IMG/VR virus record: IMGVR_UViG_3300048882_000035
Span: 1-36,127 of that record
Source: a virus
Taxonomy: Duplodnaviria > Caudoviricetes
DNA length: 36,127 nucleotides
Direction: 5' to 3' (one strand)
Shown: positions 13,717-34,468 of the stretch, in pieces
How positions within the stretch are numbered: position 1 is the stretch's first letter
Layout: each line of letters opens with the position of its first letter
Translations under genes and position numbers: made by a program
Notes under the pieces: generated by a model
What the model was told of the DNA's origin: nothing
Seen by the model: only the letters and a program-made list of their open reading frames with translations
Databases searched by the model: none

Positions 13717-14153
13717 GTAACTACGACCTAGATGAGATAGAAAGAAAGAAATCTCAGAAACAAAAGGAACAATGGAGAGAATACGTTGACAAGAGTTTAC
13801 AACATCCACTAGGATTCGGAAGAGATGACCAAGACAATATTAAAAATGTTCTACGTAACGCTCCAAAGCCTATTCAGCAATGGGATGCACAAACTCAATC
13901 CTATATACAGTTTGATGACGATCAAGATAACATACGTTTTTTACATGAGAATGAGGAAGTAACTAATCCTAAACACTACGTGGGGTTAGGTATTACACCC
14001 CTTGAGTACATAACTGCTAATGAGTTAGACTTTCTAGAGGGAAATGTGATTAAATACATTACTCGATACCCACATAAGGGTGGAGTAAACGACTTACTGA
14101 AAGCAAGAACATACTTAGAAAAACTAATTGAACGAGAGGTTGAAAAATCATGA
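13713..14153 (+). CDS. DUF3310 / gp1.7-like nucleotide kinase family protein
   Basis: VTNPKHY...[29 protein letters not shown]; AAGGAG SD favours ATG 13713. Confidence 0.85.
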
Positions 14154-16090
14154 GCAACATATTACCGACACAGTACCAACAGTATATCCACCTCTCAAGA
14201 TACTCACGTTGGGACTACAATAATAAACGAAGAGAGACATGGGAAGAGACAGTAGACAGGTACTTCAAGTTCTTTAGAGGACATCTCAAAGAGAACTGTG
14301 GTTACACAGTAGACAAGAAGTTAGAGAGTATACTGAAGAGTGCAGTTTATTCCCTGCAAATTATGCCGTCAATGAGGTGCTTAATGACCGCAGGAGAGGC
14401 ATTAGAGAAAGAGAATGTAGCAGGTTACAACTGTGCTTACTTACCTATTGACTCTCCAAGATCATTTGATGAACTACTCTATGTACTCATGAATGGTACT
14501 GGTGTTGGATTCTCAGTTGAATACAAGTACACTAGCTTGCTTCCGTTTGTACCTGACACCTTACATGAAACAGATTCACTAATAGTTGTTAGAGACTCTA
14601 AGTTAGGATGGGCTAAAGCATTTAGAGAACTTATCTCCCTACTTTACTCAGGTCTAATACCTAAGTGGGACATGAGTGGAGTTAGGGAAGCAGGTGCACC
14701 TTTGAAAACTTTTGGAGGTAGAGCTAGTGGGCCTGAACCTTTAGAGGAACTATTCAGGTTTGCTGTGAGGACATTTAAGGATGCAACATCAACTAAGCTG
14801 ACTCCATTACAATGCCATGACTTAGTATGTAAGACAGCAGAGGTTGTTGTAGTGGGTGGTGTACGAAGGAGTGCTCTCTTATCCTTAAGTGATGTAGGTG
14901 ATGAACAGATGCGTACCTGTAAATCAGGAGAGTGGTGGGGTAGACAATCCCAACGTGCTCTTGCTAATAACTCTGCTAATTACCATAGTAATCCAGATGT
15001 AGGAACATTTCTAAAGGAATGGCAAGCTTTGTATAACTCAAAGTCTGGTGAACGTGGTATATTCAGTAGTGCTAATGCTAAGAAGCATGTTGACACACTA
15101 AACATTGATCTGAAGAACCCACTTAAGGGAGACAGGAGAGAAGCACGAGATGACTTTGGAACTAACCCATGTTCAGAGATAATCCTGAGACCACGAGAGT
15201 TTTGTAACCTGACTGAAGCAGTAGTTAGGAGTGACGACACACCTACTTCCATATCAAAGAAGGTAGAACTAGCAACAATACTAGGTACATGGCAGTCAAC
15301 CCTTACAAACTTTAGATACTTAACTAACAAGTGGAAAACTAACTGTGAAGAGGAGAGACTACTTGGTGTCTCACTCACAGGTGTAATGGATTGCCCACTT
15401 ACTAATGGATCAAGCGGTGAGAACCTACCTAATCTACTTACCAAGTTAAGAGAAAAAGCAATAAAAACTAACGAAGAACATGCTGGTGAACTTGGAATAA
15501 ACAAGTCTGCTAGTATAACTTGCGTTAAACCTTCTGGAACAGTCAGTCAACTTGTTGACTCTGCCTCTGGAATCCACACACGACACAGCCCTTACTACAT
15601 TAGAACAGTTAGAACTGATGTAAAAGATCCCCTGTGTACACTACTAATTGATAGCGGAGTACCTTATGAACCTGACATAACTAATCCCAGTAATGTCATG
15701 GTCTTTTCTTTCCCCATGAGATCCCCTAAGTATTCTCTAACAAGAAAAGATCTATCCGCTATTGGTCAGCTAGAACTTCATGGTATTTACTCTAAGTTTT
15801 GGGCAGAACATAAAGTCAGTCAAACTGTTTCTGTAAAAGAAGAGGAGTGGCTTCCTGTCGGTTCCTATGTTTTTGATAACTTTGATGACATATCTGGAGT
15901 ATCCTTTTTACCTTACTCTGACTACATTTATAAGCAAGCACCATACACAGAGTGTACAAAAGAAGAATTTGATACATTAAGCAAGAGTTTTCCCTCTATT
16001 AATTGGGACAATCTTCTTAAATATGAGACACTTGATAGTACTTCCGGCTCCCAAGAGTTAGCATGTACTGCTGGTAACTGTGAAATATAA
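14150..16090 (+). CDS. nrdJ: Ribonucleotide reductase, class II (adenosylcobalamin-dependent) type
   Basis: RRETWEETVDR, YNC, GGVRRSA, TNPCSEI, VKPSGTVSQL, C-terminal LACTAGNCEI; no beta-subunit gene adjacent. Confidence 0.88.
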   Translation: MSNILPTQYQQYIHLSRYSRWDYNNKRRETWEETVDRYFKFFRGHLKENCGYTVDKKLESILKSAVYSLQIMPSMRCLMTAGEALEKENVAGYNCAYLPIDSPRSFDELLYVLMNGTGVGFSVEYKYTSLLPFVPDTLHETDSLIVVRDSKLGWAKAFRELISLLYSGLIPKWDMSGVREAGAPLKTFGGRASGPEPLEELFRFAVRTFKDATSTKLTPLQCHDLVCKTAEVVVVGGVRRSALLSLSDVGDEQMRTCKSGEWWGRQSQRALANNSANYHSNPDVGTFLKEWQALYNSKSGERGIFSSANAKKHVDTLNIDLKNPLKGDRREARDDFGTNPCSEIILRPREFCNLTEAVVRSDDTPTSISKKVELATILGTWQSTLTNFRYLTNKWKTNCEEERLLGVSLTGVMDCPLTNGSSGENLPNLLTKLREKAIKTNEEHAGELGINKSASITCVKPSGTVSQLVDSASGIHTRHSPYYIRTVRTDVKDPLCTLLIDSGVPYEPDITNPSNVMVFSFPMRSPKYSLTRKDLSAIGQLELHGIYSKFWAEHKVSQTVSVKEEEWLPVGSYVFDNFDDISGVSFLPYSDYIYKQAPYTECTKEEFDTLSKSFPSINWDNLLKYETLDSTSGSQELACTAGNCEI

Positions 16091-16098
16091 GGACATTT

Positions 16099-16302
16099 AT
16101 GGACTATAACTTAGTATCCAAAGAATTAATTCAATACCTTGAGGATCAATTTCCTGATAGACTACCTCCCTATAAAAATGTTCCCTCTGGAACAGACATG
16201 AAAGAAATATCTTATCTTCAAGGCCAACAATCGGTAGTAAAATTATTAACCCAACTCTACGAAGACGACCATGTGTTTAGGAAAGACCCCCCAACCTCCT
16301 AA
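16099..16302 (+). CDS. gp6.5-like small protein
   Basis: LIQYLEDQFPD...YLQGQQSVVKLL; position at the start of the virion module. Confidence 0.7.
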   Translation: MDYNLVSKELIQYLEDQFPDRLPPYKNVPSGTDMKEISYLQGQQSVVKLLTQLYEDDHVFRKDPPTS

Positions 16303-16492
16303 GATAGTGATGCCACCAGCACCGCCTCCACCCGCAATGAGGGATATGCCTGAGTTAGCTCAAGCAGAACTAGAGATGGCTGTGAAGGACACACAAAAAG
16401 GAGCTAAGAGAGAGTATCGAAAAGTAGTTGCAAGCACAGGAACGTCTAAGAGCAGTAGTGCCTACGCTGGTGGAGGACTGCAAACAACGTAA
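16271..16492 (+). CDS. gp6.7-like small virion/ejection protein
   Basis: Met-Cys start, Pro-rich, basic Gly/Ser tail ending GGGLQ; synteny. Confidence 0.65.
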   Translation: MCLGKTPQPPKIVMPPAPPPPAMRDMPELAQAELEMAVKDTQKGAKREYRKVVASTGTSKSSSAYAGGGLQTT

Positions 16493-16512
16493 ACCATTTA
16501 AAAACACACACT

Positions 16513-16920
16513 ATGTCAAATATAACAAAGCGAAACCTACAAATTAATCCAATCAGTTCACAAGAAATGTTAGATGCAGTAAAAAAAGCCGCATCGAAGG
16601 ATAGTCATGAGCCTCTATTTGCAACACACGCTGTAATAAAAGATGGAGAAATCGTAGGCTCTTTTTGTACCATATCTCCAACAGTTTACTGGTGGTTGGA
16701 CTCTAAGAAAACAGATGTTACTGATACTGCAATAGTACTACAAAGTGTTGACACACTAATTAATAACGAGGGTTACACAGGTTATGCAATGCCTGTTCAC
16801 CCTAGTTCTCCCTATCATAAGTTCTTAATAAATAGATCTGAAGATAGTAACCTTTCCGATCAGCTATGTCTTGGAAAGAATAAGGAACCTTGGACAATCT
16901 TTTTGAAAGGAAGTATATAA
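16513..16920 (+). CDS. Putative GNAT-fold acyltransferase-like protein
   Basis: 135 aa; THAVIKDGEIVGSF beta hairpin, VYWWLD strand, helix, GYTGYAMPV strand. Fold inferred by eye. Confidence 0.5.
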   Translation: MSNITKRNLQINPISSQEMLDAVKKAASKDSHEPLFATHAVIKDGEIVGSFCTISPTVYWWLDSKKTDVTDTAIVLQSVDTLINNEGYTGYAMPVHPSSPYHKFLINRSEDSNLSDQLCLGKNKEPWTIFLKGSI

Positions 16921-17336
16921 TGTGCATAGAACAAATTAACAAAGTCCAGCAGAATGTTGCAGCACAAGGTAGACGACAAGCAACGTCTAAAAGTTGGGAC
17001 AGATACAAGGCAAAGAAATGGGATCCACTTAGTAAAGAGATGCAGGAGGGAAATGTGTCCGGAAAACTTGCTAGTGATGCGGATCAATTCTTATCAGAAA
17101 ATGTTCACGATGCAGGTGCAGTTGTAGGAGATGAAGTAGGGCGATGGGGTGGAGCTATTGCGAGTGTGTTTGGTATGGGGAAAGACGAACAACAACAACA
17201 AAGTACTAGTGATTCAATATCTGCAAACTACTCTAAGAGTTCATCTGAGAAGTCTAGCCAATCAAATAAGAAGTCTAAAAAAGATTCAAAAGGTGGAACA
17301 GGCGGTAGTAAACGACAGTTCAATGTTAATGCGTAG
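16920..17336 (+). CDS. Met-Cys-initiated low-complexity virion/ejection protein candidate
   Basis: TAATG coupling gives the start MCIEQ at 16920; Gly-rich hydrophobic patch WGGAIASVFGMG; S/K tail ending GGSKRQFNV. Confidence 0.65.
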   Translation: MCIEQINKVQQNVAAQGRRQATSKSWDRYKAKKWDPLSKEMQEGNVSGKLASDADQFLSENVHDAGAVVGDEVGRWGGAIASVFGMGKDEQQQQSTSDSISANYSKSSSEKSSQSNKKSKKDSKGGTGGSKRQFNVNA

Positions 17337-17356
17337 AGACTAAAAAAGGGGAGGGT

Positions 17357-17830
17357 ATGTTAAAACAAGTAACTCAAAAAAAGATTAAAGAGAACTGGAA
17401 AAAATATAAATCACATATTGAAACAGCAATGACTTCTACGGAAGGTGGAAATATTATTTTCAGTAATAGTAATTCAGATATTTATAAGGATATTTTTGGT
17501 AGATTGATGAATCCCTTTAATCAAAGTATGCACCTTTGGAGCGAAGGGGATGAGGATTATATTGTATTAACTCAGTTACAAATTTGTGAGTTTACAGAAA
17601 AACAGACTCTAGTACTTCTCTCTTCTACTCGTACTAGAGAGGTAGACAAAGACCTCTTAGATGAAAGATATTATGAGGCCTACAAATCTATCTCAAAATT
17701 TGCAAGAGATAATAATTGTGTAGGAATGTATTGTTATAGTGATTTAGATTACTTTGCAGAGACAGCGAAGAAAACAAAAGAATGGACTAATGTTATTACT
17801 CGTTACCAATTCTATTTTCCCTTAGATTAA
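17357..17830 (+). CDS. Putative GNAT-fold acyltransferase-like protein
   Basis: 157 aa; W..YKSHIE.AM, MHLW, IVLTQL, FARDNNCVGM pattern resembling GNAT-like phage proteins found next to ejection genes. Inferred. Confidence 0.55.
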   Translation: MLKQVTQKKIKENWKKYKSHIETAMTSTEGGNIIFSNSNSDIYKDIFGRLMNPFNQSMHLWSEGDEDYIVLTQLQICEFTEKQTLVLLSSTRTREVDKDLLDERYYEAYKSISKFARDNNCVGMYCYSDLDYFAETAKKTKEWTNVITRYQFYFPLD

Positions 17831-17831
17831 A

Positions 17832-18956
17832 ATGAAAATATATACAGAGATAAATTATAAGTGGCTAGATGGTCAACTAGTAGAAACCAGTTCTAAGTCT
17901 TTTGATTATGATGGTGATCTTACCCTCTGTGGGCCGGGAGGAGGTGGCGGTGGAGGAACAGTTACTAAAGTAGTAAAGAAAGCTGCGTCAACTACAAAGA
18001 AAGCGGTAAAGAAAGTCGCAAAGAAGGTTGAGACAGTAAAAAAGAAGGTTGTAAAGAAGGTTGCCGCAGTAAAACCTAAGATAAAAATACCAGTTGCTAA
18101 ACCTATTTCAATGCCTAAAATAAAAATACCTACTATTACAGTTAAGCCTCCCAAAATAGACATACCCAAAATTAATATTAAACCTCCAAAGATAGACGTA
18201 CCAGTTATCAGCTTAAAACCTCCTACAATAGATAAGATAAAATCAACCTCTACGGATATCAAAGGTAAGATAATGTCGACCACTACTGATGCTAAGAAGG
18301 GGCTGATGACAACCACTAGTGATGCTAAAGATAAGTTAATGACAACCACTACTGGTGCTAAGAAGGGACTTATGACAGCCACTACTGGTGCTAAAGATAC
18401 TCTTATGGGAGCTACTACTGTTGCTAAGAAGGGTCTTATGACTACCACCACTAATCTTAAAAAAGATTTACATAAAGCTACAGATAAATTATCAGGTAAT
18501 ATTAAAGTTGTGACTGATAAAATACCTGATCTTAAAATTGGTGGGACTACTGGAGACTTGTTAAAGAAAGGAAAGAAGGGTCTTCATGATATGACTTCCA
18601 CAGCAAAGAAGAACCTACACGGAGTAACAACCTCAGGTAAAACAGGTCTACACACAGCAACAGATGCTGGTAAAGTTGCTCTCCACACAGGAGCAGATAT
18701 GGCTAAGAAGAACTGGGTAGGTATTATGGATGCTGCAAAAACAAACTGGACAAGTATTATGGATGCAGGTCAAGCATGGAAGGGTGAAAAACCGAGTTCT
18801 GCCACCTCGTCTACAGGAGCAACTCAGCAAGCTATGGGGTCTGATCTAGCTATGAATGAAAAAGGGTCAGGTAAATTCACAAAAGGTCGATTAGCTATAA
18901 AGAAAAGGAAAGGTGGAAATACAGGTAAGAGAGGATTTAAAATTAGAGTCTCATGA
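17832..18956 (+). CDS. Expanded gp7.3-like Lys/Thr-rich repeat protein
   Basis: KKAVKKV segment as in T7 gp7.3, directly upstream of the portal; poly-Gly, PKIKIP repeats and 11-aa repeats. Confidence 0.7.
   Translation: MKIYTEINYKWLDGQLVETSSKSFDYDGDLTLCGPGGGGGGGTVTKVVKKAASTTKKAVKKVAKKVETVKKKVVKKVAAVKPKIKIPVAKPISMPKIKIPTITVKPPKIDIPKINIKPPKIDVPVISLKPPTIDKIKSTSTDIKGKIMSTTTDAKKGLMTTTSDAKDKLMTTTTGAKKGLMTATTGAKDTLMGATTVAKKGLMTTTTNLKKDLHKATDKLSGNIKVVTDKIPDLKIGGTTGDLLKKGKKGLHDMTSTAKKNLHGVTTSGKTGLHTATDAGKVALHTGADMAKKNWVGIMDAAKTNWTSIMDAGQAWKGEKPSSATSSTGATQQAMGSDLAMNEKGSGKFTKGRLAIKKRKGGNTGKRGFKIRVS
18273..18470 (+). repeat. 6 x 33-bp coding tandem repeat (11 aa)
   Basis: ATG at 18273, 18306, 18339, 18372, 18405, 18438; consensus MTTTTxAKKGL. 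Confidence 0.9.
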
Positions 18957-20614
18957 AACAGTATCTAGAAGAAAAATTACCCGTAGGTCAACTCGCTAGT
19001 TTATATGAGCGATCTTTTGGGGAGCGTGAAACTTACCTCAACAGAGGTAGAGAGTGTGCTAAACTAACTATACCACACCTATTACCAGATTCAGGTTCAA
19101 ACTTTTCTACAGTTTATAAGACTCCCTTTCAAAGCATAGGTTCCAGAGGTGTTAATCACTTAGCTAGTAAACTATTACTTACCTTACTTCCACCTAACTC
19201 CCCCTTCTTTAGACTTACTATTGATGACTTCGACTTACAAGCGTTGGCAGGAGATAAAGATCAACGTGGTGCAGTAGAAGAAGGATTCTCACGGATTGAG
19301 AGATCCGCAATGAACGAAATAGAGACTAGTGCATATAGAGTTCCTGTATTTGAAGCATTAAAACATTTGATTGCCGTTGGTAATTGTTTGCTCTACCTTC
19401 CAGAAGAAGAAGGAGGGATGAGGGTCTTCCACTTGGATAGATACATAGTTAAGCGTGACCCAATGGGTAACCTCCTGTATCTAATAACCAAAGAAACCCT
19501 GAGTTCACATACAATACCTCCAGATGCAAGATTAGCTCTGGGGCTTCCCTCACCAGAGGAGTTAACCCCTGAAACTCCCGATAAGCCCTATGAGCTATAC
19601 ACCTACGTTTGTAATAAAGAAAAGTACTGGCATGTACATCAGGAAATAGGAACAACACCTATCCCTGAGTCCTATGGTAAATACAAGATTGACAAGAACC
19701 CCTTCATTGCACTACGATTTAGTAGGGTAGATGGAGAATCATACGGACGAGGACTCGTTGAAGAATACTTAGGCGACCTTCGTTCTCTTGAAGCCTTGAC
19801 ACAGGCTATTGTAGAGGGATCTGCGGCTGCGGCTAAAGTCCTATTCTTAGTTAGACCTAATGGTACTACAAGAATAAAAACAATAGCAGAGGCTCCTAAT
19901 GGAGCAATAGTACAAGGTGATGAAAATGATGTTTCTACGTTACAGCTTAATAAGTTTAACGACTTTAGAGTTGCACTAGATACTATGGGTGCTATTAAAG
20001 ATAGGTTAGCTGCGGCTTTCCTACTTAATTCATCAGTACAAAGAAATGCTGAAAGAGTCACGGCAGAAGAAGTGCGTTTCATGGCACAAGAACTAGAGAG
20101 TGCTCTAGGTGGTGTCTATTCTGTGCTCTCCCAAGAATTTCAACTCCCCCTTATTAACCTCATACTACAGAAACTAATTAAAGACAAGAAGATGCCCAAC
20201 TTTCCAAAGGGAAAAGTTAAGCCTCAAGTTGTAACTGGATTAGAAGCTTTAGGTAGAGGTCAAGACCTAACTAAGTTGGCACAGTTCTTAGAATACCTAG
20301 CTCCACTTGGGCCAGAAGTAATTGCTCAAAAACTCAATGTGGATGATTACATGGATAGACTAGGTGCTTCACTTGGTATAGACACAGGAGGACTAATAAA
20401 ATCTGAAGAACAAATTCAACAGGAACAAGCCGAAGCACTAGAAGCACAAAAAGCTCAAATGCAAGAGGCTCAACAAGCTCAGATGATGAGTGACGTTGTT
20501 AAAGGAGCAGTCCCACAAGTTGCCAAAGGAATGGGCGAGGGTATGAAGGACAATCCTGAAATGGCTGAGATTATACAGCAAGCAATGGCTCAACGAATGA
20601 GTGGAAACGCATAG
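18953..20614 (+). CDS. Portal / head-tail connector (gp8-like)
   Basis: QSIGSRGVNHLASKLLLTLLPPNSPFF, GESYGRGLVEEYLGD, RNAERVTAEEVR. Confidence 0.97.
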   Translation: MKQYLEEKLPVGQLASLYERSFGERETYLNRGRECAKLTIPHLLPDSGSNFSTVYKTPFQSIGSRGVNHLASKLLLTLLPPNSPFFRLTIDDFDLQALAGDKDQRGAVEEGFSRIERSAMNEIETSAYRVPVFEALKHLIAVGNCLLYLPEEEGGMRVFHLDRYIVKRDPMGNLLYLITKETLSSHTIPPDARLALGLPSPEELTPETPDKPYELYTYVCNKEKYWHVHQEIGTTPIPESYGKYKIDKNPFIALRFSRVDGESYGRGLVEEYLGDLRSLEALTQAIVEGSAAAAKVLFLVRPNGTTRIKTIAEAPNGAIVQGDENDVSTLQLNKFNDFRVALDTMGAIKDRLAAAFLLNSSVQRNAERVTAEEVRFMAQELESALGGVYSVLSQEFQLPLINLILQKLIKDKKMPNFPKGKVKPQVVTGLEALGRGQDLTKLAQFLEYLAPLGPEVIAQKLNVDDYMDRLGASLGIDTGGLIKSEEQIQQEQAEALEAQKAQMQEAQQAQMMSDVVKGAVPQVAKGMGEGMKDNPEMAEIIQQAMAQRMSGNA

Positions 20615-22911: not shown

Positions 22912-24636
22912 ATGGCTGAAAAATATACTGTAGGTGGAAATAGGTATGATGAAGGTGGAGCTTTAGTAATGCAACCTGATCCAGCAAAAGGATTAGATCG
23001 TGAAACAAACTATCTTACTCAAGGATTCTCCGACATTTATCAGGAAACCAACGAGATGAAAAGTGAGTTAGCTAGGAAAGACTATAATAAGAAGGTTGTC
23101 AAGAGACAAGGGTACTTTAAATCAAACAAAGGTTTATCAAAAGAAGCTAGTGCTGTACTAAGACTTGTTAAAAGGAACCGAGCAGGACTCCCCTTTGCAC
23201 TACTATCTTCAGAAATAGCAAACAGGGGAGAAAAAGAAATGGTTAGTGCTGTTAAAAATCAAGAGCAGTTAAGCGTTCAGGCAAAAGAAAACCTATACGA
23301 GAATGCTGAGTCAGCCTTTAATGGTATGACTAAAGAAGAAAGGGTACTAAAACAAGACACTTTTATGCAAGATGTAGGTAAGATTAGATCAAGTTTACTT
23401 GAGGAAATTATTGCACATAGAAATGTGATAGATGAGATCACTGGAGAAAAAGGCGAGTTCCATGCTGACTTTTATGACCTCTTATACCATCCAGAAACAG
23501 GTGTGTATATGAAACCTGAAGACCAGAGGACAGAGTTTGAAAAGAACTTTATACTAGGATACTCTCAGGATTTAGTGAAGTTAGGAAAACAGGATGATGT
23601 TAAGTTAGCAAAAGAACTAATAATGAAGAGTGAGCAGTTTGTTAACTGGTGGAACATGGGTCGCCAAGCTTCTGCTATAAGTATGGAAAGAGATGGAGCT
23701 ATTATTCCAAGGCTCATACACCACGGAACTCTAGGCAGTGTCTCCCCACTTATTGGCTTTTGGGACAGACACATGGGAATGGATGTAGATGTGTTATCTG
23801 GTATGAGAGAAATAGAAAAGGAGGTAGAGAAGGGATCACACTTTGGTACTCTAAATCAAGCTATAGAAAGAGTATTAGACAAACAAGGTGATGGTTCTCT
23901 ACAACAATATGGTAGATCAAAATGGGACAAATTACAGAATGTGATATACTCTCCTAAAGGAGGTACAAAGGAAGCAAAGTTTTACTCAGGATTCATTAAA
24001 ATGAATAACCCTCTTAGAACTAAAGACTTAGGAGGTTTTGATATGGACACACTTCTAAAGTTCTTGTCTGGGACAAATTTTAATAAAGACGTTAATCTTC
24101 TCTACTACGAAAAAGATAAAAAGTCCTTAATGCCTGACTTTACCTATTCAATTTTATCACCTACTGATCCAGACTTCACTAAAAGTATTGATAGTCTTGA
24201 AGACTTCCAGAATGATGGTACACAGTTCCCTTTACTAGTGGATCACTTTGGTCAAGGTACTGCACTAGAACAAGTGTTAAATCATGCAAGAGACCTTTAT
24301 GAAGAAGATATGAACAAGGTGGGATACCCTATAGATGACTGGAACCAAGAGTGGGATAGTATGTCTTCAGGAGAAAAGGCAGCAATACACTATTATAAAA
24401 TGCATGGACTCATCAAGTTTATAAATGAAGACTTAGGTTATGACGGAATAATATATGAGAATACTAATGAAGATGCTCGTATAAATGACAAAGACGAAAT
24501 TAAAGGTGATGATTCATACATACTTTTCCACCCATGGCAGTTTAAGTCTATGTATAACAATGGAGATTTCAAATGGGGCAGACGTAATTACTTAGGTAAA
24601 ACTAATGGTAAAAATAAATACAAAAAGGTAGCATGA
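22912..24636 (+). CDS. Protein with C-terminal ART-PolyVal-like ADP-ribosyltransferase domain
   Basis: IHHGT...GSHFGT..QA...GFIKMNNPL...GYDGIIYEN...DSYILFHPWQFKSMYNNGDF follows the motif order of ART-PolyVal. Confidence 0.72.
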   Translation: MAEKYTVGGNRYDEGGALVMQPDPAKGLDRETNYLTQGFSDIYQETNEMKSELARKDYNKKVVKRQGYFKSNKGLSKEASAVLRLVKRNRAGLPFALLSSEIANRGEKEMVSAVKNQEQLSVQAKENLYENAESAFNGMTKEERVLKQDTFMQDVGKIRSSLLEEIIAHRNVIDEITGEKGEFHADFYDLLYHPETGVYMKPEDQRTEFEKNFILGYSQDLVKLGKQDDVKLAKELIMKSEQFVNWWNMGRQASAISMERDGAIIPRLIHHGTLGSVSPLIGFWDRHMGMDVDVLSGMREIEKEVEKGSHFGTLNQAIERVLDKQGDGSLQQYGRSKWDKLQNVIYSPKGGTKEAKFYSGFIKMNNPLRTKDLGGFDMDTLLKFLSGTNFNKDVNLLYYEKDKKSLMPDFTYSILSPTDPDFTKSIDSLEDFQNDGTQFPLLVDHFGQGTALEQVLNHARDLYEEDMNKVGYPIDDWNQEWDSMSSGEKAAIHYYKMHGLIKFINEDLGYDGIIYENTNEDARINDKDEIKGDDSYILFHPWQFKSMYNNGDFKWGRRNYLGKTNGKNKYKKVA

Positions 24637-25268: not shown

Positions 25269-28200
25269 ATGGCTTTAATTTCTGGGACTATACCAAGTCT
25301 AATTAATGGTATATCACAGCAGCCCGCTACACTAAGACTAAATACTCAGGGAGAAGTCCAAGAAAATGGGCTATCCCATATTGCTAGAGGGTTAGAAAAG
25401 AGACCCTGTACGGAGCATGTGGCTCAAATAGATGGTATATCATCGACTAATAGTGATGATGTTTTTATCCATACTATTCGCAGAAGTGAAGATGAAGCAT
25501 ACGCTTTAATAATGAAAGGTGGTACTACAAATGGTACAAATGGGTCAACTGCTAATGTAGATACAGAAGTAAAACTAATTGATCTCACAGGTTATGCTAC
25601 TGGAGTTGCAGGGAATGAGGTGTACGTACTAGATCAAGAGCAGACAGCTAGTTATCCAAGTGGGGCTACCTCAATCAGTTGTACTACTCAGAGTAGCACT
25701 ACAGTATTAGTACCGGGATCTACTATGCCATTAGTAGGGCAGTCTGTAAAAGGAGCAGGAATCCAAGATAATACAACTGTAGTATCAGTTTCAGGTACTA
25801 CCTCATTTGTTATATCATTAACCGCAACAGCAGGAGCGACTGTAACTTTAACATTTGGTGGACAAGAAAGTACTAGTAGCAAAGGAATTACATCTTCAGT
25901 TTCTATGGCTACCAATTCTATACCAAATAACTACTTCAAGAACTTTGCTGCATCAACCGAAACTTCTCCCAAGAATTTATTTTCTCCTAATAGTTTATCA
26001 TCAACTACTATTGCCGACTTTTCCTTTATACTGAATAAAACTCAACCTGTAAAACAAAGTGTTGACTTACCTAGTACCAGACCTTATGAAGCCCTACTTT
26101 ATTATAAAATTGGAGACTTCGGTGCAAAGTATCAAGCACTTATTACTGAGTGGAACGTAGGTTTAGATGGAGAAAGATTAACTAAAGACCTTCTACATAG
26201 TGAACTTCCTGAAGATCATGCACTAGTTGATGCTTCTCATACCAATCCAGCAACCCCTGCCCATGTATTCAGAAGGGCAATGAGAAACCGGTATAAGATT
26301 GTCTTTGCAACACCTGATAATGAGGTGGAGTCTAGATCTGGATTAGGAGAAGCAGGTAACTCTGAATCCATTAATAACCAAGCATCAGTCCGTGTTAATA
26401 ATATTGCAAACGCAATAAAAACAGGAGCAGACGCAAGTGAAATAGTTCACTTAATACGGGCAGATGGAGCAGGAACATTTAGTGCTTCTAACTACAAGAT
26501 TATTGTTAGTCTTGGAACTACGGATAATTCAGATGTAGCCTACACAGGAGACAAGGGAGTCAAAAGTAAAGGAGTAGTCACAGGGACTATGGACTCTACA
26601 GCTAGTAATTCAACTCATGATATGATATGGACTCCAACAGGAACTAGTAGAGTCAGTTGTACTACAGCAGCAAGTAGTACTACAGTATCATGCACCGCTT
26701 CAACCAGTATAGCAGTAGGACAGTTAGTATATGGGGATGGAGTCCCAGCAGGTTCAAAAGTAGTAACAATTAATAATGCGACAACTACCTCTTTTACTAT
26801 GACAGAAGCCGCAACAGCATCAGCAACTACAACTTTAACATTTGGTGAGGGAACAGGTTATGGTTTAAATGACCTGATAACTGATAATGCCAGATTCAAG
26901 GTTTTACACGATCCTAATACAAGTGTAATACATATTAAAAATAACACCTATCCCATTACTGTTGAACTTACAGATGGTAAAGGTGACACATATTCCAGAT
27001 CAGTTAATGGTAGTGATGAAGTGCCTAACTTTGGTTACCTACCCGGATCGGCAAATATTGAAACTGGTTTTGTTGCAAAGATTTCTGGAGACAAGGCATC
27101 TGGACAAGACGACTACTATGTAAATTGGACAGGCTCAGTATGGAAAGAAGTGGTTCAACCTATGTATCCCGGTGGTTTAGAAATAGAGGGGGCAACTGGG
27201 TTTATTACTCCTTATACATTAAATACTACGGCTACTTCAGCTATTTATGATCCTGCTTATGTACTAAATGCTCTAAAAAGGTCTCGCTATAGGACTATAG
27301 ATAGTACCACAATGCCTATGCAACTCTTTAAAGCCTTTGGAAAAGTCTACGATGGTACAACAGGACAATCAGATGCTATATACTTTATATTAAAACCAGT
27401 TGAATGGGCAGATAGGGAGGCAGGAGACAACCTTACTAACCCATTCCCATCATTTAGTAACTACGATTCATTCGCTTCTCCTAACGGAGTCTATACGATT
27501 AATGATATATTCTTTCATAGGAATAGACTAGGATTCATCTCCGATGAGAATGTAATACTTTCTGAGTCTGGAGGCTATTACAACTTCTTCCACAATACTG
27601 TGTTATCCGTTTTAGATACAGCCCTAATTGATGTGGCAGTTAGTAATAACCAAGTGGCTATACTTAAGTCTGCCATACCATTCCAAGAAAACCTTATACT
27701 GTTCTCAGACCTCCAGCAGTTCAAACTCACCTCTGATGCCTTCCTTACACCTACCTCAGTAATGGTTGACGTTGCAACCAACTTTGAGACCTCCACAGTA
27801 GCTAAACCAGTTCCGGCTGGTAAAACGATCTTCTTCCCATTTCAACGTGGGGCATTCTCAGGTATACGTGAGTACTCCATTAATATTGCGTCTGAAACTA
27901 ATGATGCTAATGAGATAACTGCCCACGTTCCAGAGTATGTTGAGGGAGTAGTTAAGAAGTTGGCAGTATCCTCTAACGAAGAAGTGCTTCTGATTCTCTC
28001 TGAGACAGACCGAAGGGTACTAAGGGTCTATAAGTACTACTATAATGATGCAGAGAAGATGCAGTCTGCATGGTCAACGTGGACATTTGATGCAGAAATA
28101 ATCGATATGTCTTTCATAGGATCAATAGCATTCTTCTTGTTTAGACGAGGAACACAGATTTACCTAGAGAAGTTAAACCTTTCTGTAGATAATGCTACCT

Positions 28201-29615
28201 CCATAATGGATGACGAAATAGGTGTTAGACTAGACAGGCGAAAAAGAATAACTTCTATGGTGTACACACTAAAGGACTATACTCCTACTCCTATTAAAAA
28301 TGCAACAGAAACCGCATTTACTGCCGATCATACTACAGAGTTTATAACTTCAAATAACCACGGACTAAGTAACACTCAAAAAATACGAGTAATAGGAACA
28401 GACCTGCCAGCAGGGTTAGCTATTGATACAGATTATTATGTTAGAGAAAAGACAACCCATACATTCAAGGTTGAACTGAGTATCGGTGGTGGTGCAATAA
28501 ATATAACAGATAATGGTACTCCTACAAATAGTTGGGTATATGCTAATTCAGCATGGCAGATTAACCATACATCAACTGCAAATACTGTAGTACAAACGTC
28601 TACCACAGGAACCGGAACATTGATGAAGTTCACAACTGTTACTGATGCCTCTGGTAATCCTACGTTCACTATTACTACACAAGGGTCAGGCTATAACTTA
28701 GGTGATACACTCACCATTACTGATCCGGGTAATACTACTAATACAGCAATAGTAACTCCATACCTATTACCCTATGGTGATACAAACTATGACAAACTAA
28801 CTGCATCAGCAACCGACAATGTAACCTTAGATACGGCTGTAATTGACGGATGGGGGTCTAAGATTAAAATACAAGGGTTAAACAATGGTTACCTACCTAG
28901 AGTGGGGCAGCTATTCTACAAGCAAATACGAAATGAAATTACAGCTGCATTAGAAGGTAGTTCAGGAGTAACTTATAAAGTAACAGCCGTCACAGTAGAC
29001 CCTGATGATGCAACTAAAGCACAAATTAAGATAACCCCCTCTGTCGCTAAAGAAGCACCATGGAGTAAAGTAACAGTATCAGGAACTACTTATGAACAAG
29101 TCTTACAGTTTGAAGCTAGAGAACCTGTGTACGTTGTGGAAACAGGAGAGGAAGTACCAGCAAATAAAGTGGTTGGTATTATGTCAACAGGTTCAGACTA
29201 CTCTAAAGATGTGGGTAATGCAACTCCAGAGGTGTTTGCAGGAGTCCGATACGACTTTAGGTATCAGTTCTCTGAGCAGTTTGTTAAGAGCAATGAAAAC
29301 TCAATTAACTCAGGTAGATTACAAATGAAAAACTTTGAGATCTCCTATGCAAACTCAGGTAACTTTGATGTAGAAGTGGCTCCAAGACCTTTTGATGACT
29401 TATATCGTACAATTAATACTAAAGAATTCACAGCTAAAATTCTGGGTTCTGTGTTGCTTGGGAATCTACAATTAGAAACAGGAGTACTACGAGTTCCAGT
29501 TTATTGTAATAGTAGGGATGCAAGAATTACAGTAACAAGTAAGGCGTGGCATCCAGTAGCATTACAATCAGCAGACTGGGAGGCACTACAAGTACTTAGA
29601 AACCAAAGAATCTAA
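25269..29615 (+). CDS. Tail tubular protein B / nozzle (gp12-like) with large insertions
   Basis: MALISGTIPSLINGISQQP, GLEKRP, WADREAGD..TNPFPSF, FFHRNRLGF, QSAWSTW, GRLQMK. Confidence 0.93.
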   Translation: MALISGTIPSLINGISQQPATLRLNTQGEVQENGLSHIARGLEKRPCTEHVAQIDGISSTNSDDVFIHTIRRSEDEAYALIMKGGTTNGTNGSTANVDTEVKLIDLTGYATGVAGNEVYVLDQEQTASYPSGATSISCTTQSSTTVLVPGSTMPLVGQSVKGAGIQDNTTVVSVSGTTSFVISLTATAGATVTLTFGGQESTSSKGITSSVSMATNSIPNNYFKNFAASTETSPKNLFSPNSLSSTTIADFSFILNKTQPVKQSVDLPSTRPYEALLYYKIGDFGAKYQALITEWNVGLDGERLTKDLLHSELPEDHALVDASHTNPATPAHVFRRAMRNRYKIVFATPDNEVESRSGLGEAGNSESINNQASVRVNNIANAIKTGADASEIVHLIRADGAGTFSASNYKIIVSLGTTDNSDVAYTGDKGVKSKGVVTGTMDSTASNSTHDMIWTPTGTSRVSCTTAASSTTVSCTASTSIAVGQLVYGDGVPAGSKVVTINNATTTSFTMTEAATASATTTLTFGEGTGYGLNDLITDNARFKVLHDPNTSVIHIKNNTYPITVELTDGKGDTYSRSVNGSDEVPNFGYLPGSANIETGFVAKISGDKASGQDDYYVNWTGSVWKEVVQPMYPGGLEIEGATGFITPYTLNTTATSAIYDPAYVLNALKRSRYRTIDSTTMPMQLFKAFGKVYDGTTGQSDAIYFILKPVEWADREAGDNLTNPFPSFSNYDSFASPNGVYTINDIFFHRNRLGFISDENVILSESGGYYNFFHNTVLSVLDTALIDVAVSNNQVAILKSAIPFQENLILFSDLQQFKLTSDAFLTPTSVMVDVATNFETSTVAKPVPAGKTIFFPFQRGAFSGIREYSINIASETNDANEITAHVPEYVEGVVKKLAVSSNEEVLLILSETDRRVLRVYKYYYNDAEKMQSAWSTWTFDAEIIDMSFIGSIAFFLFRRGTQIYLEKLNLSVDNATSIMDDEIGVRLDRRKRITSMVYTLKDYTPTPIKNATETAFTADHTTEFITSNNHGLSNTQKIRVIGTDLPAGLAIDTDYYVREKTTHTFKVELSIGGGAINITDNGTPTNSWVYANSAWQINHTSTANTVVQTSTTGTGTLMKFTTVTDASGNPTFTITTQGSGYNLGDTLTITDPGNTTNTAIVTPYLLPYGDTNYDKLTASATDNVTLDTAVIDGWGSKIKIQGLNNGYLPRVGQLFYKQIRNEITAALEGSSGVTYKVTAVTVDPDDATKAQIKITPSVAKEAPWSKVTVSGTTYEQVLQFEAREPVYVVETGEEVPANKVVGIMSTGSDYSKDVGNATPEVFAGVRYDFRYQFSEQFVKSNENSINSGRLQMKNFEISYANSGNFDVEVAPRPFDDLYRTINTKEFTAKILGSVLLGNLQLETGVLRVPVYCNSRDARITVTSKAWHPVALQSADWEALQVLRNQRI

Positions 29616-29649: not shown

Positions 29650-30123
29650 ATGGAATACACAGTAGATAAGGCAAGCATGGGTGACTGCTTAGAACTTGCA
29701 CCAAAGATGAGACAATCAGATATTCAGGAGATATGGAGTTCAGGTAGGTTCACTCCTACTAGTGGACTAGTGGAAAGCTTGGAAGTCTCAGGTGAACAAG
29801 CTTATTCACTTAAGTTAGATGATGAGGTAGTAGGTATGTTTGGGGTAGCCCCATGTAAAGAAGAACCCAGTATAGGAGTAGTGTGGCTTATGGGTACAGA
29901 TAATATGACTACCAACAAAAGAGGGTTTTATAAAGTATCACAAAGATACCTAAAGAAGTTCTTAAAGTTATATAAGACAGTATTTAACTATGTAGACGAA
30001 AGGAACACAAGTTCATCAAAGTGGTTAGAAAGTTTAGGCTTCCAAAATTTACACAGGGAACCTAAGTTTGGAGTAGATAAAGTCCCATTTAATTTATATG
30101 TAAAGGATAAAGAATATGTGTGA
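29650..30123 (+). CDS. Internal virion protein A (gp13-like, GNAT-like fold)
   Basis: MRQSDIQEI, VVGMFGV, VWLMGT, NYVDERN..S.KWLESLGF. Confidence 0.9.
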   Translation: MEYTVDKASMGDCLELAPKMRQSDIQEIWSSGRFTPTSGLVESLEVSGEQAYSLKLDDEVVGMFGVAPCKEEPSIGVVWLMGTDNMTTNKRGFYKVSQRYLKKFLKLYKTVFNYVDERNTSSSKWLESLGFQNLHREPKFGVDKVPFNLYVKDKEYV

Positions 30124-30982
30124 TCCAGTATCAGGAGCAATGGCAGCGATGGCTATGATTCAACAGCAACAATCACAAGAAGCCGCAAAGAAACAAGCAG
30201 ATGCAGTCAATGATTCCTTTAGGGAAAACAATGAGATGCAGGTTGATGCCTACAATAAAGACATGGAGGCATACTGGGATGAAGAGGTAAATATACAAGA
30301 GGAGGCATTTGAAAATGCTGAAGACGCTGCCGAAGCTAAGTTACAAATGAAAGTCTCGCAACAACAAGACTCTGCTTCAATGATGGTTGCTAATGCAGAA
30401 ACTTCAGGAGGAGGAGCAACCCCACAAGCCTTACTAGGAAACTTAAGAAGGTCTCAATTAAATAGTGCAATGGACTTAGATGATGCCTACCAAAGAGGAG
30501 TTGTAGCACTTGGTGGAGAAGTGTCTGCCCTACAAAGGGATAAAACTGTTAGAAGGAATCAAGCTATTGGTGCTATTAATAGTGCTCCTAGAGCCGGATA
30601 CCAGACAAATGAATCTAAACTTATGGCTATTGGGTTAGCAGGAGGTAGTGCCTTTGTTCAAGGTCAGGCAATGCAAGGAAATAGCTTATTTCCATCCACT
30701 TCTCCTACCAAAGTAAGGGGAGGAGTTAATCCTAGTGCTATGAGACAACGTAGAATGAGTTATAAAAAGGCGAAGGGATTTAGGTCAAATATGACAAAAT
30801 CAAGTTTACTTTCTTCAAATGAATTAGGAGGAATGGCTCCACCATTAGGTGCAGGTCGTGGTGTAATTACTGGAGGTAAAGGCTGGACATATAGAGGTAC
30901 AGGAGCAAACACCGGAATGAGAAGTCGAGGAAGAACTTGGTCACAAAAAGGTGGTTTTAATTATAATTACTATAATGTATAA
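30116..30982 (+). CDS. Internal virion protein B (gp14-like)
   Basis: MCDPVS start, Q/A-rich helical body, Gly-rich hydrophobic segment; synteny. Confidence 0.8.
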   Translation: MCDPVSGAMAAMAMIQQQQSQEAAKKQADAVNDSFRENNEMQVDAYNKDMEAYWDEEVNIQEEAFENAEDAAEAKLQMKVSQQQDSASMMVANAETSGGGATPQALLGNLRRSQLNSAMDLDDAYQRGVVALGGEVSALQRDKTVRRNQAIGAINSAPRAGYQTNESKLMAIGLAGGSAFVQGQAMQGNSLFPSTSPTKVRGGVNPSAMRQRRMSYKKAKGFRSNMTKSSLLSSNELGGMAPPLGAGRGVITGGKGWTYRGTGANTGMRSRGRTWSQKGGFNYNYYNV

Positions 30983-30992
30983 AGGATAAACC

Positions 30993-32582
30993 ATGATACC
31001 CAAAAATCAGACATTTGACAACTCAAAGAGGAACCTCTTAAGTGCTCAGAGAGGTATGAAGGAACCTAAAAAAATACAAATCTTTCGGGAAGGGAAGGTT
31101 GCTAACTCCGGAGCATCTCTTCAGCCTAAAAAACCTGATCCAGAAGCAGGTAGACAAGAATCCGAAGATGCCAAACTAATAGGTATGATGAAGGACTTTG
31201 TCTTTGGAAAAGGAATGCTCCAAGAACAGTACCAAGATTCGGAGAAAGAAAGAGGAATTGCATCGTGGGAAAGAGCTACTTCAGACCAAAGAGAAGGTTA
31301 CGAGAAGGCTATAAAAAATGGGTGGATAAACAGTAAAGAAAGTCCATACTTCAGAGAGTCTGTTACAAATGCATACACAGATAACTTAGTCCACAAAGCA
31401 TCCTTAAAGATGTGGACTGAGTATGAGAAGTGGCCTGACAAGAACAACCCTAGTAGTGGTAGCCTTGAGAATTTCTTTCAACAACAAGAAGATGCAATAG
31501 CAATAAACTTAGAAACAATACCTGACGAAACTCTAAAGAATAGATTCTATGAACAATGGCAAGCACAGAAGAGAGAACTAACTAGAAAGCATGGTAACTA
31601 CCTAAATGCTGAGTATAATGCTAAAGCACAAGATGAGATAGATAATTTGATCTACAATAGACTCGTGGAGTATGATGGAGTACTATCACAAGACTTTAGG
31701 AATAGTAAGGTTCCTCTCTCACAGATGCTGGATAAGCAAAGGTACACAAGAGCAGATCTTCTGGAAGTTAGCCGTGTCCTTGAAGCTGTCACCCCTAATG
31801 GAAAATTACCTCCAAAGGAATTAGAAGAGCTTCAAATTAAAGCTGCAACAAGGGGTGGAGTATATAAGGAAGTATATGAAGGATTAACTCATAATACAGA
31901 TGCAGACCCACAAGTTGCACTAGCACCTTATCCAATGAAAGAGGGTACTAAGATACCTACAGAAGTTGCGGTAGAAATAGCAAAAGTATTACCTTCTAAT
32001 ATAGAAATTAATGATGCTAAAGATGTACAATTAATCGAGAAACATCTTGAATCAATAAAAGCTAATGCTCCAGTATCCGGAGATTGGGAAAAAATGGCTG
32101 AATCAGAGAAGTTCTTCACATTTGCAGGTATCATTTCTCCTGCTAAACCAGCAGTAAGTGTGGGAGAAAGTGTAATCTCCAGTATGGTTCTTGGTCTTAA
32201 AAATGGAGAAAGTGCCGTAGCTATGGCAGAGCATCCTCTTACTGTAAAAGGAGGCCCATTAATTAAAGAAGGAGGAGGAGCAAATGGAACCTTACCTGTG
32301 TTCCTAGCGACATCTAAGGACTATCCTCCAGATGTTCAAACCTTTGCCGATCAGTTTGCACTCAGTCTTGAAAAACAACGTACAAGTACCTTAAAGATTT
32401 GGCATGGCTACTTAGACAAATATTATAGTGGTAAAAAGGGGGCTACCGCTAATATTTGGAAGCCAGACACAAGACCCGGAAAGAAAGGGAAATGGTTTAT
32501 AAATGATTGGGAAAACGCTAATTTTAACTTAATACAATTTAAGTCTTATGTAACAAAGATGGAAGAGGAAGGTAAAATATAA
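30993..32582 (+). CDS. Internal virion protein C-like (gp15-like), first of two genes
   Basis: Synteny after gp14; AIKNGWINSKESPYFR segment; helical and charged composition. Confidence 0.6.
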   Translation: MIPKNQTFDNSKRNLLSAQRGMKEPKKIQIFREGKVANSGASLQPKKPDPEAGRQESEDAKLIGMMKDFVFGKGMLQEQYQDSEKERGIASWERATSDQREGYEKAIKNGWINSKESPYFRESVTNAYTDNLVHKASLKMWTEYEKWPDKNNPSSGSLENFFQQQEDAIAINLETIPDETLKNRFYEQWQAQKRELTRKHGNYLNAEYNAKAQDEIDNLIYNRLVEYDGVLSQDFRNSKVPLSQMLDKQRYTRADLLEVSRVLEAVTPNGKLPPKELEELQIKAATRGGVYKEVYEGLTHNTDADPQVALAPYPMKEGTKIPTEVAVEIAKVLPSNIEINDAKDVQLIEKHLESIKANAPVSGDWEKMAESEKFFTFAGIISPAKPAVSVGESVISSMVLGLKNGESAVAMAEHPLTVKGGPLIKEGGGANGTLPVFLATSKDYPPDVQTFADQFALSLEKQRTSTLKIWHGYLDKYYSGKKGATANIWKPDTRPGKKGKWFINDWENANFNLIQFKSYVTKMEEEGKI

Positions 32583-34465
32583 TGGCAACAATATTTGAAC
32601 AGAACCTCTCTGAACAAGGGCTTAATGAGACACAGAAAAAAAAGGCCCGTTTTAATAACATTAATCAAATAGACATAGGACTAAAGCAACGTAGAGATGA
32701 CGAAACAGGTACTCTAAGTGTAGTCGAGGATTTAAACCATACCCTTTCTGAACTTGGGCAACGTGGGCATTCCTATAGAATACTCAATAAGTTGGCAGGT
32801 CAACAGATTGCTATGAAGGCTAGGGCTAAAGGAGACAGAAGGCGATTAGACCTCTTAGACCACATTAGAACTCCAGGCGGTGTCTATGGTCATACAGTTG
32901 AAGGTATGAAGCTTAAGCAGATGACTGTGAACCAAATGGAGGCAGACTCAGAAGCAGATGAAGCAAGTGAAAGAGCCGCTTATACTCATGGGATTAAAGT
33001 ACTACTACATGAATATAAGATGGAAATAGGACAACTACTTAAGGAAAAAGCCTCTGAAACAGACCCAAATAAAATACAAGAAATAGAAAAGAAGATACAA
33101 GGTGTTTTATCCAATGCGGGAGTAGAGGGAGTAGGAGGTCAACTCCAGATATATAAAAACAGGTTGACTACAGGTCAGGACTCCTTGACTCAAGGTAAAA
33201 ATAGGATACTTGGTTGGAATGATGTTGTTAATCCTGATAGCGTAGATAAGAAAACTGTTAGAGATAGAATAGTAGATGTATTAGCAGATCCAGCTACTGA
33301 TTCTAGTCTTAAATCTAGAGAGAATCGTATAGCTACAGAATTAGATGGAGAAAATATCACACCAAATCCAGCCACACTAAAACTCTTTAAACGTATTAAT
33401 GATTCATACGTAGCACCTACAGCAACCCCTTTATGGACAGTTGAGAGAGAGTATCAAGAAGGTATAATTACAAATAACCTTCTGCCTTTTAATATGTACC
33501 CAAATCACATGGCAAAACTACGTGGTTTAGGGAAGTCGCAACCAACTCCTCCTGCGATTATGGCGAGGCTTGCAAAAGCAAAGAATGACTTAAGATTTGC
33601 ATTTGTACAAGAGTTTGACAAATATGGTACTTCCTTAGAGCAGAGGCCGGAAGACGAGAATACAAAAGAAGAGAATAGACCACGATATGGTTATGGAGAA
33701 TGGATTGGATCAGAGAAAGCCGCCTTTGTGGAGTCACCTGCATACAAAGAAAAGGTACGTAAGATTACAGACGACCTTGATACTGACCTTAAAAGATTAA
33801 CTGCTCTAGAAGCTCCTAAAGTAAAAGAGAGAGATAATCATAATGATCTGGTTAATACAAAAATGCCAGCTAAAAAAGAAGGGCCGAAAACCTTCATGGA
33901 TCTTCAAAAGATGATATATGATGATGATGATGGAGTCGAGCAGCGTCATTATGGTGTAATGGAGACCTATGAACAGTTTAAAAAAGCTATATGGGGATTA
34001 GCTTTAAATGCTACTGACAAGTATAAGGGTATAGCAGATATACACTCTTGGTCGGATGACGTACACTCTTGGTTTAAAGAGGCAACCGCAGGTACAGACG
34101 ATCCTAAAATAAAACAAAAGCAAATAGAAGCTTTATGGGATTGGGGTATCTACCTAATTAAACGGAAGAAAATTAATACAGTATCATTAGATAATACCCT
34201 TAGTACGGAGCAGATGGAAAAGAAAATAAATACCATTCGTAAATCTAAAGTTCCTTTCCCTAAAGAAATCACTAGTTTTATAGGTGCAAAGAAACTGATT
34301 AAGAAGAGTACAACAAAGAAATCCACAAAGAGTAACAAGAAACTAACTCAAATCGAACAGGAAGCAGAGATCACAACAACAGATCTATTGAAGAAAGTTG
34401 AAGCGAATGAACCCGAAGCTATAAAAACATTAAAAAAATGGTTTAAGAATATATTTGGAGAATAA
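32582..34465 (+). CDS. Additional internal virion protein candidate
   Basis: 627-aa ORF, TAATG-coupled, between the gp15-like and gp16-like genes. Confidence 0.55.
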   Translation: MATIFEQNLSEQGLNETQKKKARFNNINQIDIGLKQRRDDETGTLSVVEDLNHTLSELGQRGHSYRILNKLAGQQIAMKARAKGDRRRLDLLDHIRTPGGVYGHTVEGMKLKQMTVNQMEADSEADEASERAAYTHGIKVLLHEYKMEIGQLLKEKASETDPNKIQEIEKKIQGVLSNAGVEGVGGQLQIYKNRLTTGQDSLTQGKNRILGWNDVVNPDSVDKKTVRDRIVDVLADPATDSSLKSRENRIATELDGENITPNPATLKLFKRINDSYVAPTATPLWTVEREYQEGIITNNLLPFNMYPNHMAKLRGLGKSQPTPPAIMARLAKAKNDLRFAFVQEFDKYGTSLEQRPEDENTKEENRPRYGYGEWIGSEKAAFVESPAYKEKVRKITDDLDTDLKRLTALEAPKVKERDNHNDLVNTKMPAKKEGPKTFMDLQKMIYDDDDGVEQRHYGVMETYEQFKKAIWGLALNATDKYKGIADIHSWSDDVHSWFKEATAGTDDPKIKQKQIEALWDWGIYLIKRKKINTVSLDNTLSTEQMEKKINTIRKSKVPFPKEITSFIGAKKLIKKSTTKKSTKSNKKLTQIEQEAEITTTDLLKKVEANEPEAIKTLKKWFKNIFGE

Positions 34466-34468
34466 CTA

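Follow-up and report, generated by a model that had tools for sequence, protein, structure and literature searches.

Candidate GNAT-type genes beside Cys- and Gly-tipped putative ejection proteins in a T7-like phage

We analyzed the 36,127 nucleotides (the window) of IMG/VR virus record IMGVR_UViG_3300048882_000035, which come from a marine T7-like phage. Directly before the portal gene lies an array in which small proteins that start with Met-Cys, or carry a Cys behind a conserved leader, alternate with candidate proteins of the GNAT (Gcn5-related N-acetyltransferase) type. A further pair of this kind, the counterpart of T7 genes 13 and 14, lies downstream. We label the candidate enzymes E and the proteins that follow or flank them S, and we refer to the first residues of the latter as their tips.

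Layout of the array

The genes and features of the two regions are as follows:

16099..16302, + strand: small conserved gene, equated by its position with T7 gp6.5 (phrog_4970, E 7e-10); the slot is kept in relatives
16271..16492, + strand: S1, 73 aa, Met-Cys start, proline-rich, in the T7 gp6.7 position
16513..16920, + strand: E1, 135 aa, predicted GNAT-fold protein (model and fold search) in the slot of T7 gp7, phiKMV gp28 and SP6 gp28
16920..17336, + strand: S2, 138 aa, Met-Cys start, low-complexity, in the T7 gp7.3 position
17357..17830, + strand: E2, 157 aa, likely GNAT-fold by indirect profile alignment; accessory, accompanies the Gly-rich leader protein
17832..18956, + strand: S3, 374 aa, Lys-rich repeat protein; behind the leader its tip consists of Cys33, Gly-Pro and a run of seven Gly
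17832..17930, + strand: conserved 32-residue leader of S3, running up to Cys33 (alignment); predicted to be cleaved, with P22 gp7 as precedent
18953..20614, + strand: portal (phrog_449, E 2e-184; PF12236)
29650..30123, + strand: E3', homologue of T7 gp13 (IVP-A) (phrog_308, E 2.5e-33; PF11090; weak GNAT matches in Pfam, E 0.05)
30116..30982, + strand: gp14 (IVP-B) homologue, Met-Cys-Asp-Pro start, overlapping the gp13-like gene (PF24072, E 1e-9; phrog_805)

An earlier note on this DNA had given the coordinates of the array, its TAATG coupling and the Cys-Gly-Pro-Gly7 tip of the third protein, and all were confirmed from the sequence. The TAATG overlap indicates that S2 is translationally coupled to E1; its length is counted from this ATG, although the list of open reading frames (ORFs) opens the frame at an upstream TTG. 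The note had also placed each of three enzymes immediately upstream of its own substrate. Three candidate enzymes are indeed present, but there are four Cys-tipped proteins, and S1 at 16271 has no preceding enzyme gene. S1, S2, S3 and the gp14-like protein each contain a single Cys, at residues 2, 2, 33 and 2, respectively, and the two genes after the gp14-like gene encode none. Lys makes up 19% of S3 and 10-12% of S1 and S2.

S1 is likely an ejected core protein. Its relatives start with Met-Cys or Met-Gly, and Pfam and PHROG searches with it returned no match. S3 resembles T7 gp7.3 in composition and is probably either a tail-channel protein of the gp7.3 kind or an ejected one, an identity proposed with no homology detected. 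None of S1, S2 and S3 matched the profiles of T7 gp6.7 and gp7.3 (PF17570 and PF11653), and we judge their equivalence by position, size, tip and composition.

Enzyme families and the tips that follow them

E1 was modeled with AlphaFold2 (AF2) on a 143-sequence alignment, reaching a pLDDT (predicted local distance difference test) of 92.2. A VIA search of 48,161 chains put Sulfolobus PAT first (Z 11.7, root-mean-square deviation (rmsd) 2.6, 117 residues aligned) and RimI next, and all 50 matches listed were GNAT-type or unnamed structural-genomics entries at Z 10-11.7. Foldseek ranked Ard1 first, and gp13-family models were among the viral structural neighbors. We are confident in the predicted GNAT fold of E1, which spans residues 5-135; the near-tied matches speak for the fold and not for any one subfamily. 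Protein N-terminal acetyltransferases (RimI, Ard1, Naa50, NatC and Naa80) are among the near-tied top matches, and the likeness to this class (RimI, Ard1, NatA/C/E) covers ~120 residues at Z 10-11.7 and an rmsd of 2.5-3.1. E1 differs from it in being only 6-15% identical, in matching many GNATs outside the class nearly as well, and in a motif A that is not canonical. Eukaryotic viruses have Gly-start entry proteins on which N-myristoyltransferase, a host enzyme with two GNAT domains, acts. This enzyme offers a parallel in its fold, in a Gly tip exposed by Met removal or cleavage and in membrane-penetrating substrates, whereas the window proteins are single-domain and phage-encoded. Neither N-myristoyltransferase nor an RTX-type acyltransferase was among the E1 fold matches listed, which excludes neither.

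The E1 family comprises six close relatives and 380 relatives counted as representatives at 50% clustering. D30, H32, H39, G49, W61, S99 and P100 are near-invariant in a family whose mean column identity is 22%. E1, E2 and their family members matched no GNAT entry in Pfam, PHROG or NCBIfam, and neither protein matched the gp13 family (phrog_308, PF11090). Among solved sequences, the best match of the E1 profile was dopamine N-acetyltransferase (E 0.2), and a tblastn search with an E1 relative against cultured phages returned zero matches.

E2 has 91 relatives (128 in a second search), with T72, C121, D129, R149 and Y150 as near-invariant polar residues. Its AF2 model, built from the single sequence without an alignment, had a pLDDT of 44.6 and a GNAT-like order of elements. 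VIA (best Z 2.5) and BFVD searches with this poor model were both uninformative, and co-folding of E2 with coenzyme A (CoA) and residues 1-40 of S3 scored 0.01, with controls not folded, and carries no weight in either direction. By hhalign, the E2 profile aligned with a family whose sequences end in GR-x-GW and which occupies the same genomic slot (probability 95.1%, E 3e-8, 111 columns with 23 rows; E 0.0013 with 8 rows). Relatives of this GR-x-GW family are annotated as acetyltransferase or acyltransferase in 2 of 19 records, and the family aligns weakly with SP6 gp28 (E 0.0024). The nearest named clusters to E2 in the Atlas were GNAT (0.93 and 0.91). By these comparisons E2 is likely a GNAT-fold protein. 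Among solved sequences, no useful match emerged for the profiles of E2, gp13, the GR-x-GW family or T7 gp7. Six loci (L018, L019, L021, L024, L025 and L026) carry two diverged tandem copies of E2, followed by a single leader protein whose tip reads Gly-run, Lys, Gly-run.

Between families, hhalign gave E 0.41 for E1-E2, 0.21 for E2-gp13 and 0.0075 for E1-gp13, so that by profile the three are not, or barely, alike. The earlier proposal of three unrelated GNAT enzymes therefore stands in part: the families are barely alike and the fold is predicted for E1 and known for gp13, but for E2 the case is indirect.

A downstream gene was called at 76 of 78 E1 loci, 37 of 42 E2 loci and 19 of 23 gp13 loci. 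After E1 it begins with Met-Gly at 56 loci and Met-Cys at 6, bears a leader at 2 and has another start at 12, one of which (L074) has an upstream Met-Gly start. Met-Gly or Met-Cys thus follows E1 at 62 of 76 loci, or in 40 of 51 distinct N-termini, and the Cys-start S2 of the window is the minority state. After gp13 the start is Met-Cys at 19 of 19 loci. After E2 there is a leader protein at 35 of 37, the others being a tandem E2 copy (1) and a Met-Pro-Gly-rich protein (1). Because only 12 of 394 distinct ORFs of at least 150 aa in loci L001-L119 and the window segment start with Met-Gly or Met-Cys, the tip pattern is more than chance. These counts bear out the conserved adjacency to Cys- or Gly-initiated genes that the earlier note had proposed.

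A strict one-to-one pairing of enzyme and substrate finds no support, as Cys-start proteins persist without E1 in L003, L012 and L023. Many E2-bearing phages keep a Met-Cys S1 in the absence of E1 (L023 keeps Met-Cys S1 and S2), E1-bearing phages often have the leader protein without E2, and most relatives have only one of the two enzymes. In other groups of phages, E1 relatives also occupy the gp13 slot (L068, L069, L106) or precede ejection genes (L070, L072), and there some neighbors start with Met-Ala or Met-Glu.

Conservation of the 32-residue leader is high as far as the Cys, after which the sequences vary. A leader scan confirmed 138 stretches, of which 80 were kept; with 4 removed as contig-edge cases or fragments, 57 were distinct. 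At least two Gly occur in the seven residues after the leader in 32 of 32 proteins with an adjacent E2-type gene vs 5 of 25 without one, while His, Trp or Asp comes next in 20 of the 25 and in 0 of the 32 (Fisher P = 4e-11 for the association of tip and E2, nominal only). Mapped onto a tree built from the N-terminal halves of 48 portals, the adjacent-enzyme label has to change 8 times, and well-supported branches force at least 4 of these changes; kin share the label, since shuffled labels need 15.6 changes on average. Enzyme-free rows neighbor enzyme-bearing rows with portals 64-93% identical. One relative, L043, is 90.7% identical to the window over 16010-17343, breaks off just before E2 and resumes at 18513; it lacks E2, and its leader protein reads Cys-His-Trp-Tyr after the leader. 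E2 and the S3 tip are an accessory block that is gained or lost among close relatives.

The Gly-rich stretch, not the Cys, tracks E2. The leader Cys is kept in 54 of 57 proteins with or without E2 and is Leu, Phe or Ala otherwise (Leu or Phe in L023 and L055), and for this reason it seems to be part of a leader-processing site. With E1 neighbors mostly Gly-start as well, a Cys-specific chemistry finds no backing. By analogy with P22 gp7 we predict that the leader is cut off, which would make either Cys33 or Gly34 the first residue of mature S3. In L095, L100 and L101 the S3 slot holds leaderless Met-Gly genes, which is consistent with such removal. We rejected S3 as a bacterial lipoprotein (Lgt/LspA), because its polar, acidic leader lacks a hydrophobic core and some members have Leu, Phe or Ala in place of the Cys.

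Some further observations concern leaders. A tblastn search with the S3 leader against cultured phages returned zero matches. Two other leader types, ending in Cys then Phe/Tyr-Gly-Gly, occupy the S3 slot or directly follow E1 in L046, L050, L079, L070, L072, L096 and L105. The 32-residue leader itself also occurs after a nozzle- or terminase-like gene in other phage groups (L171, L177, L187, L155, L169, L174 and L184), in some cases on both of two genes in tandem, and is thus a portable module.

Known phage systems and genomic context

In T7 the order is 6.5, 6.7 (Met-Cys), 7, 7.3 (Met-Gly), 7.7 and portal, with 13 and 14 (Met-Cys) later. The window array is this pre-portal layout (6.7-7-7.3-portal) plus one extra enzyme-substrate unit. 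In phiKMV the order is a small gene, an annotated GNAT (gp28, matching PF00583), a Met-Gly virion protein and the portal, and SP6 likewise has an annotated GNAT (gp28) in the pre-portal slot, then a small Met-Gly virion protein and the portal. The window differs in having the unit twice in tandem, with a leader on one substrate, and in enzymes that match no GNAT model of Pfam, PHROG or NCBIfam. Its second region (29650-30982) is a plain member of the T7 gp13-gp14 type, gp13-like by profile and by its position between nozzle and gp14; beyond T7 IVP-A, the window has two more genes of this kind upstream of the portal, which belong to other families.

In 2016, T7 IVP-A was described as matching acetyltransferases, needed for morphogenesis, absent from the virion and encoded before IVP-B, with homologues in P22 (PMC4819975), which agrees with the earlier note's view of gp13 homologues as acetyltransferase-like. 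A cobavirus GNAT, pc40, occupies the slot directly before the first ejection protein (PMC6775973). The enzyme-before-ejection-protein layout is accordingly not new, being already known from T7 IVP-A/IVP-B. The available parts of these two papers name no substrate or reaction for either protein, and those of PMC8954989, PMC3276506, PMC8811829, PMC13552765 and bioRxiv 10.64898/2026.05.18.726046 add none. In T7, gp6.7 and gp14 form an outer-membrane channel and gp7.3 lies in the tail channel (PMC11784390). Virions contain gp6.7, gp7.3 and gp14, with gp7 and gp13 not listed in the available part of PMC4517105, and these three proteins are ejected (PMC11784390, PMC4517105). The earlier statement that gp6.7 and gp14 begin with Met-Cys and are ejected is thus correct, the starts having been read from T7 itself. 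P22 offers a parallel to S3: gene 14 (DUF2824), likewise small, nonstructural and of the acetyltransferase family, lies directly before gene 7, and gp7 has a 20-residue leader cut by OpdA. The mature gp7 N-terminus was sequenced as Lys-Gly-Gly-Lys-Gly, and deletion of the leader leaves ~60% of the burst (PMC8402733). Lys-Gly-Gly tips also occur in L139 and L214.

T7 gp7 (L231:831-1232) is annotated as a host range protein. With gp6.7 (Met-Cys) on one side and gp7.3 (Met-Gly) on the other, it fills the position that GNATs hold in phiKMV and SP6. It shows weak PHROG cross-matches to the phiKMV gp28 family (E 0.025), and BLAST and hhalign were negative for T7 gp7 as a GNAT. As a lead, it is possibly an unrecognized GNAT.

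Elsewhere in the window, profile matches identify an RNA polymerase (start 5348), and Pfam/PHROG searches recognized primase-helicase, DNA polymerase, scaffold, capsid, tail tube and nozzle genes; neither a tail fibre nor a terminase was identified. A single-subunit ribonucleotide reductase with a match to a B12-dependent insertion domain (14150-16090) precedes the pre-portal block here and in many relatives. Between capsid and tail tube, a 574-aa gene (22912-24636) has only weak matches, to phrog_21376 (E 3e-4) and ART-PolyVal (E 0.05). The nozzle protein (25269-29615) has 1448 aa vs ~800 in the family model, with several insertions. In 30993-36127, gp15 and gp16 have positional counterparts that are short (529 and 627 aa) and match no family; minus-strand ORFs come next. 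Among cultured or deposited phages, 182 match the window gp13, in every case at <60% identity; pelagiphages and cyanophages make up many of these. Predicted promoters and terminators in 15900-19100 were near shuffle levels (13 vs 8.6 +/- 2.9 and 2 vs 2.1).

Proposed N-terminal acylation and its alternatives

We think it somewhat probable, on balance, that tip-specific phage GNATs acylate the N-terminal amine of small ejection proteins during virion assembly. The predicted fold of E1, the near-invariant polar residues of E1 and E2, the downstream tips, the enzyme-tip switches among relatives, the like layouts of phiKMV, SP6, T7 and P22 and the ejection of T7 gp6.7, gp7.3 and gp14 count in its favor. 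Removal of Met, or for S3 the loss of 32-33 residues of leader to a host peptidase as in P22 gp7, would expose a small N-terminal residue. The translationally coupled enzyme may then bind the tip, the gp13 type preferring Cys-start proteins, the E1 type mostly Gly-start ones and the E2 type a Gly-rich tip behind a leader. An acyl group would be placed on the amine rather than the thiol, because Gly and Cys interchange at the tips. The capped tip might help the protein to load onto the portal or tail or, once ejected, to seat itself in the outer membrane, as the roles of T7 gp6.7, gp7.3 and gp14 suggest, while the enzymes would stay out of the virion, as is known for gp13.

Several observations weigh against acylation. 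The neighbor of E1 is neither Met-Gly/Met-Cys nor leader-bearing at the 12 other loci of 76, and many leader and Cys-start proteins have no adjacent enzyme gene. Most leaders that went into the leader query were linked to E2, the Gly criterion was set after the data had been seen, and kin are not independent. For E2, support for the fold is indirect and the direct model poor. The near-tied fold matches of E1 include catalytically dead GNATs (the O-GlcNAcase pseudo-HAT). The canonical acyl-CoA pyrophosphate loop of GNATs is Q/R-x-x-G-x-G. Read by sequence, none of E1, E2 and the window gp13-like protein has this loop, and the E1 family consensus where it belongs is W-x-x-S-x-K-x-x-x-R-D-S. No acyl-carrier gene was found among the 29 ORFs scanned in the window. 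Our literature search, mostly without subscription papers, found no report of an acylated phage ejection protein. Residues 2-15 of T7 gp6.7 were modeled in the virion with no added group mentioned in the available part of PMC11784390, and the amine of P22 gp7 is implied to be free, since its N-terminus could be sequenced (PMC8402733).

The main rival is that the GNAT-fold proteins are noncatalytic chaperones or loaders that grip the N-terminus of an ejection protein and pass it to the procapsid or tail, which we regard as unlikely, though a live alternative. The missing loop and the unblocked P22 gp7 (PMC8402733) fit it, as do the requirement for T7 IVP-A in morphogenesis without retention in the virion (PMC4819975) and the Pfam description of gp13 as a probable scaffold; binding alone would also predict covariation of tip and enzyme. 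It accounts poorly for the near-invariant His, Asp and Ser in so divergent a family as E1, and the way in which unrelated GNAT families, that of the PF00583-matching phiKMV gp28 among them, replace one another in a single slot suggests shared chemistry rather than one binding surface.

Two other explanations fit less well. RTX toxin-activating acyltransferases acylate internal lysines. Active enzymes could similarly acylate lysines within the ejection proteins, which are rich in Lys and contain Gly-Lys, or one enzyme could serve all tips with the others redundant; we consider this improbable. The Lys content of S3, S1 and S2, the Lys-Gly-Gly tips and the presence of only one of E1 and E2 in most relatives would agree with it, but it is the first few residues that covary with the enzyme, which Lys content does not, and no RTX-type acyltransferase was among the 50 E1 fold matches listed, which by itself does not count against it. 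Least probable, and very unlikely in our view, is that the genes are accessory and act on host proteins or metabolites, the tip pattern reflecting shared ancestry of gene blocks. T7 gene 7 in the same slot carries its host range annotation, phage GNATs are often taken as host modifiers (PMC13552765), and E1 and E2 are each dispensable in relatives. Tight translational coupling, the repeated joint switching of enzyme and tip on the portal tree, and the moves of the E1 family to the gp13 slot or before other ejection genes speak against it.

If amine acylation is accepted, a fatty acyl group has a somewhat less than even chance of being the one transferred. A broader proposal, which we hold to be doubtful, is that short-tailed phages lipidate their own proteins: exchangeable single-domain GNATs, including T7 gp13 and possibly gp7, would each recognize one kind of N-terminal tag and attach a fatty acyl anchor to proteins bound for the outer membrane, and after loss of an enzyme the Gly-rich tip would be replaced by a His/Trp/Tyr-rich stand-in for the anchor.

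The array is a variant of the already known IVP-A arrangement; new here are two unannotated GNAT-type families, three GNAT-type genes in one genome and the repeated enzyme-tip switch. T7 gp13 has been known as morphogenesis-essential, virion-absent and acetyltransferase-like since 2016, yet has no substrate in the literature found, as far as the available parts of those papers go. Amine capping, if true, would explain this puzzle. The T7 gp13 question becomes testable with three enzyme-tip pairs, swaps that have arisen naturally, and nearly identical phages that either have or lack one of the enzymes. Were the group fatty, phages would have their own parallel to the myristoylated proteins with which eukaryotic viruses enter cells, with consequences for how the ejectosome is seated in the outer membrane.

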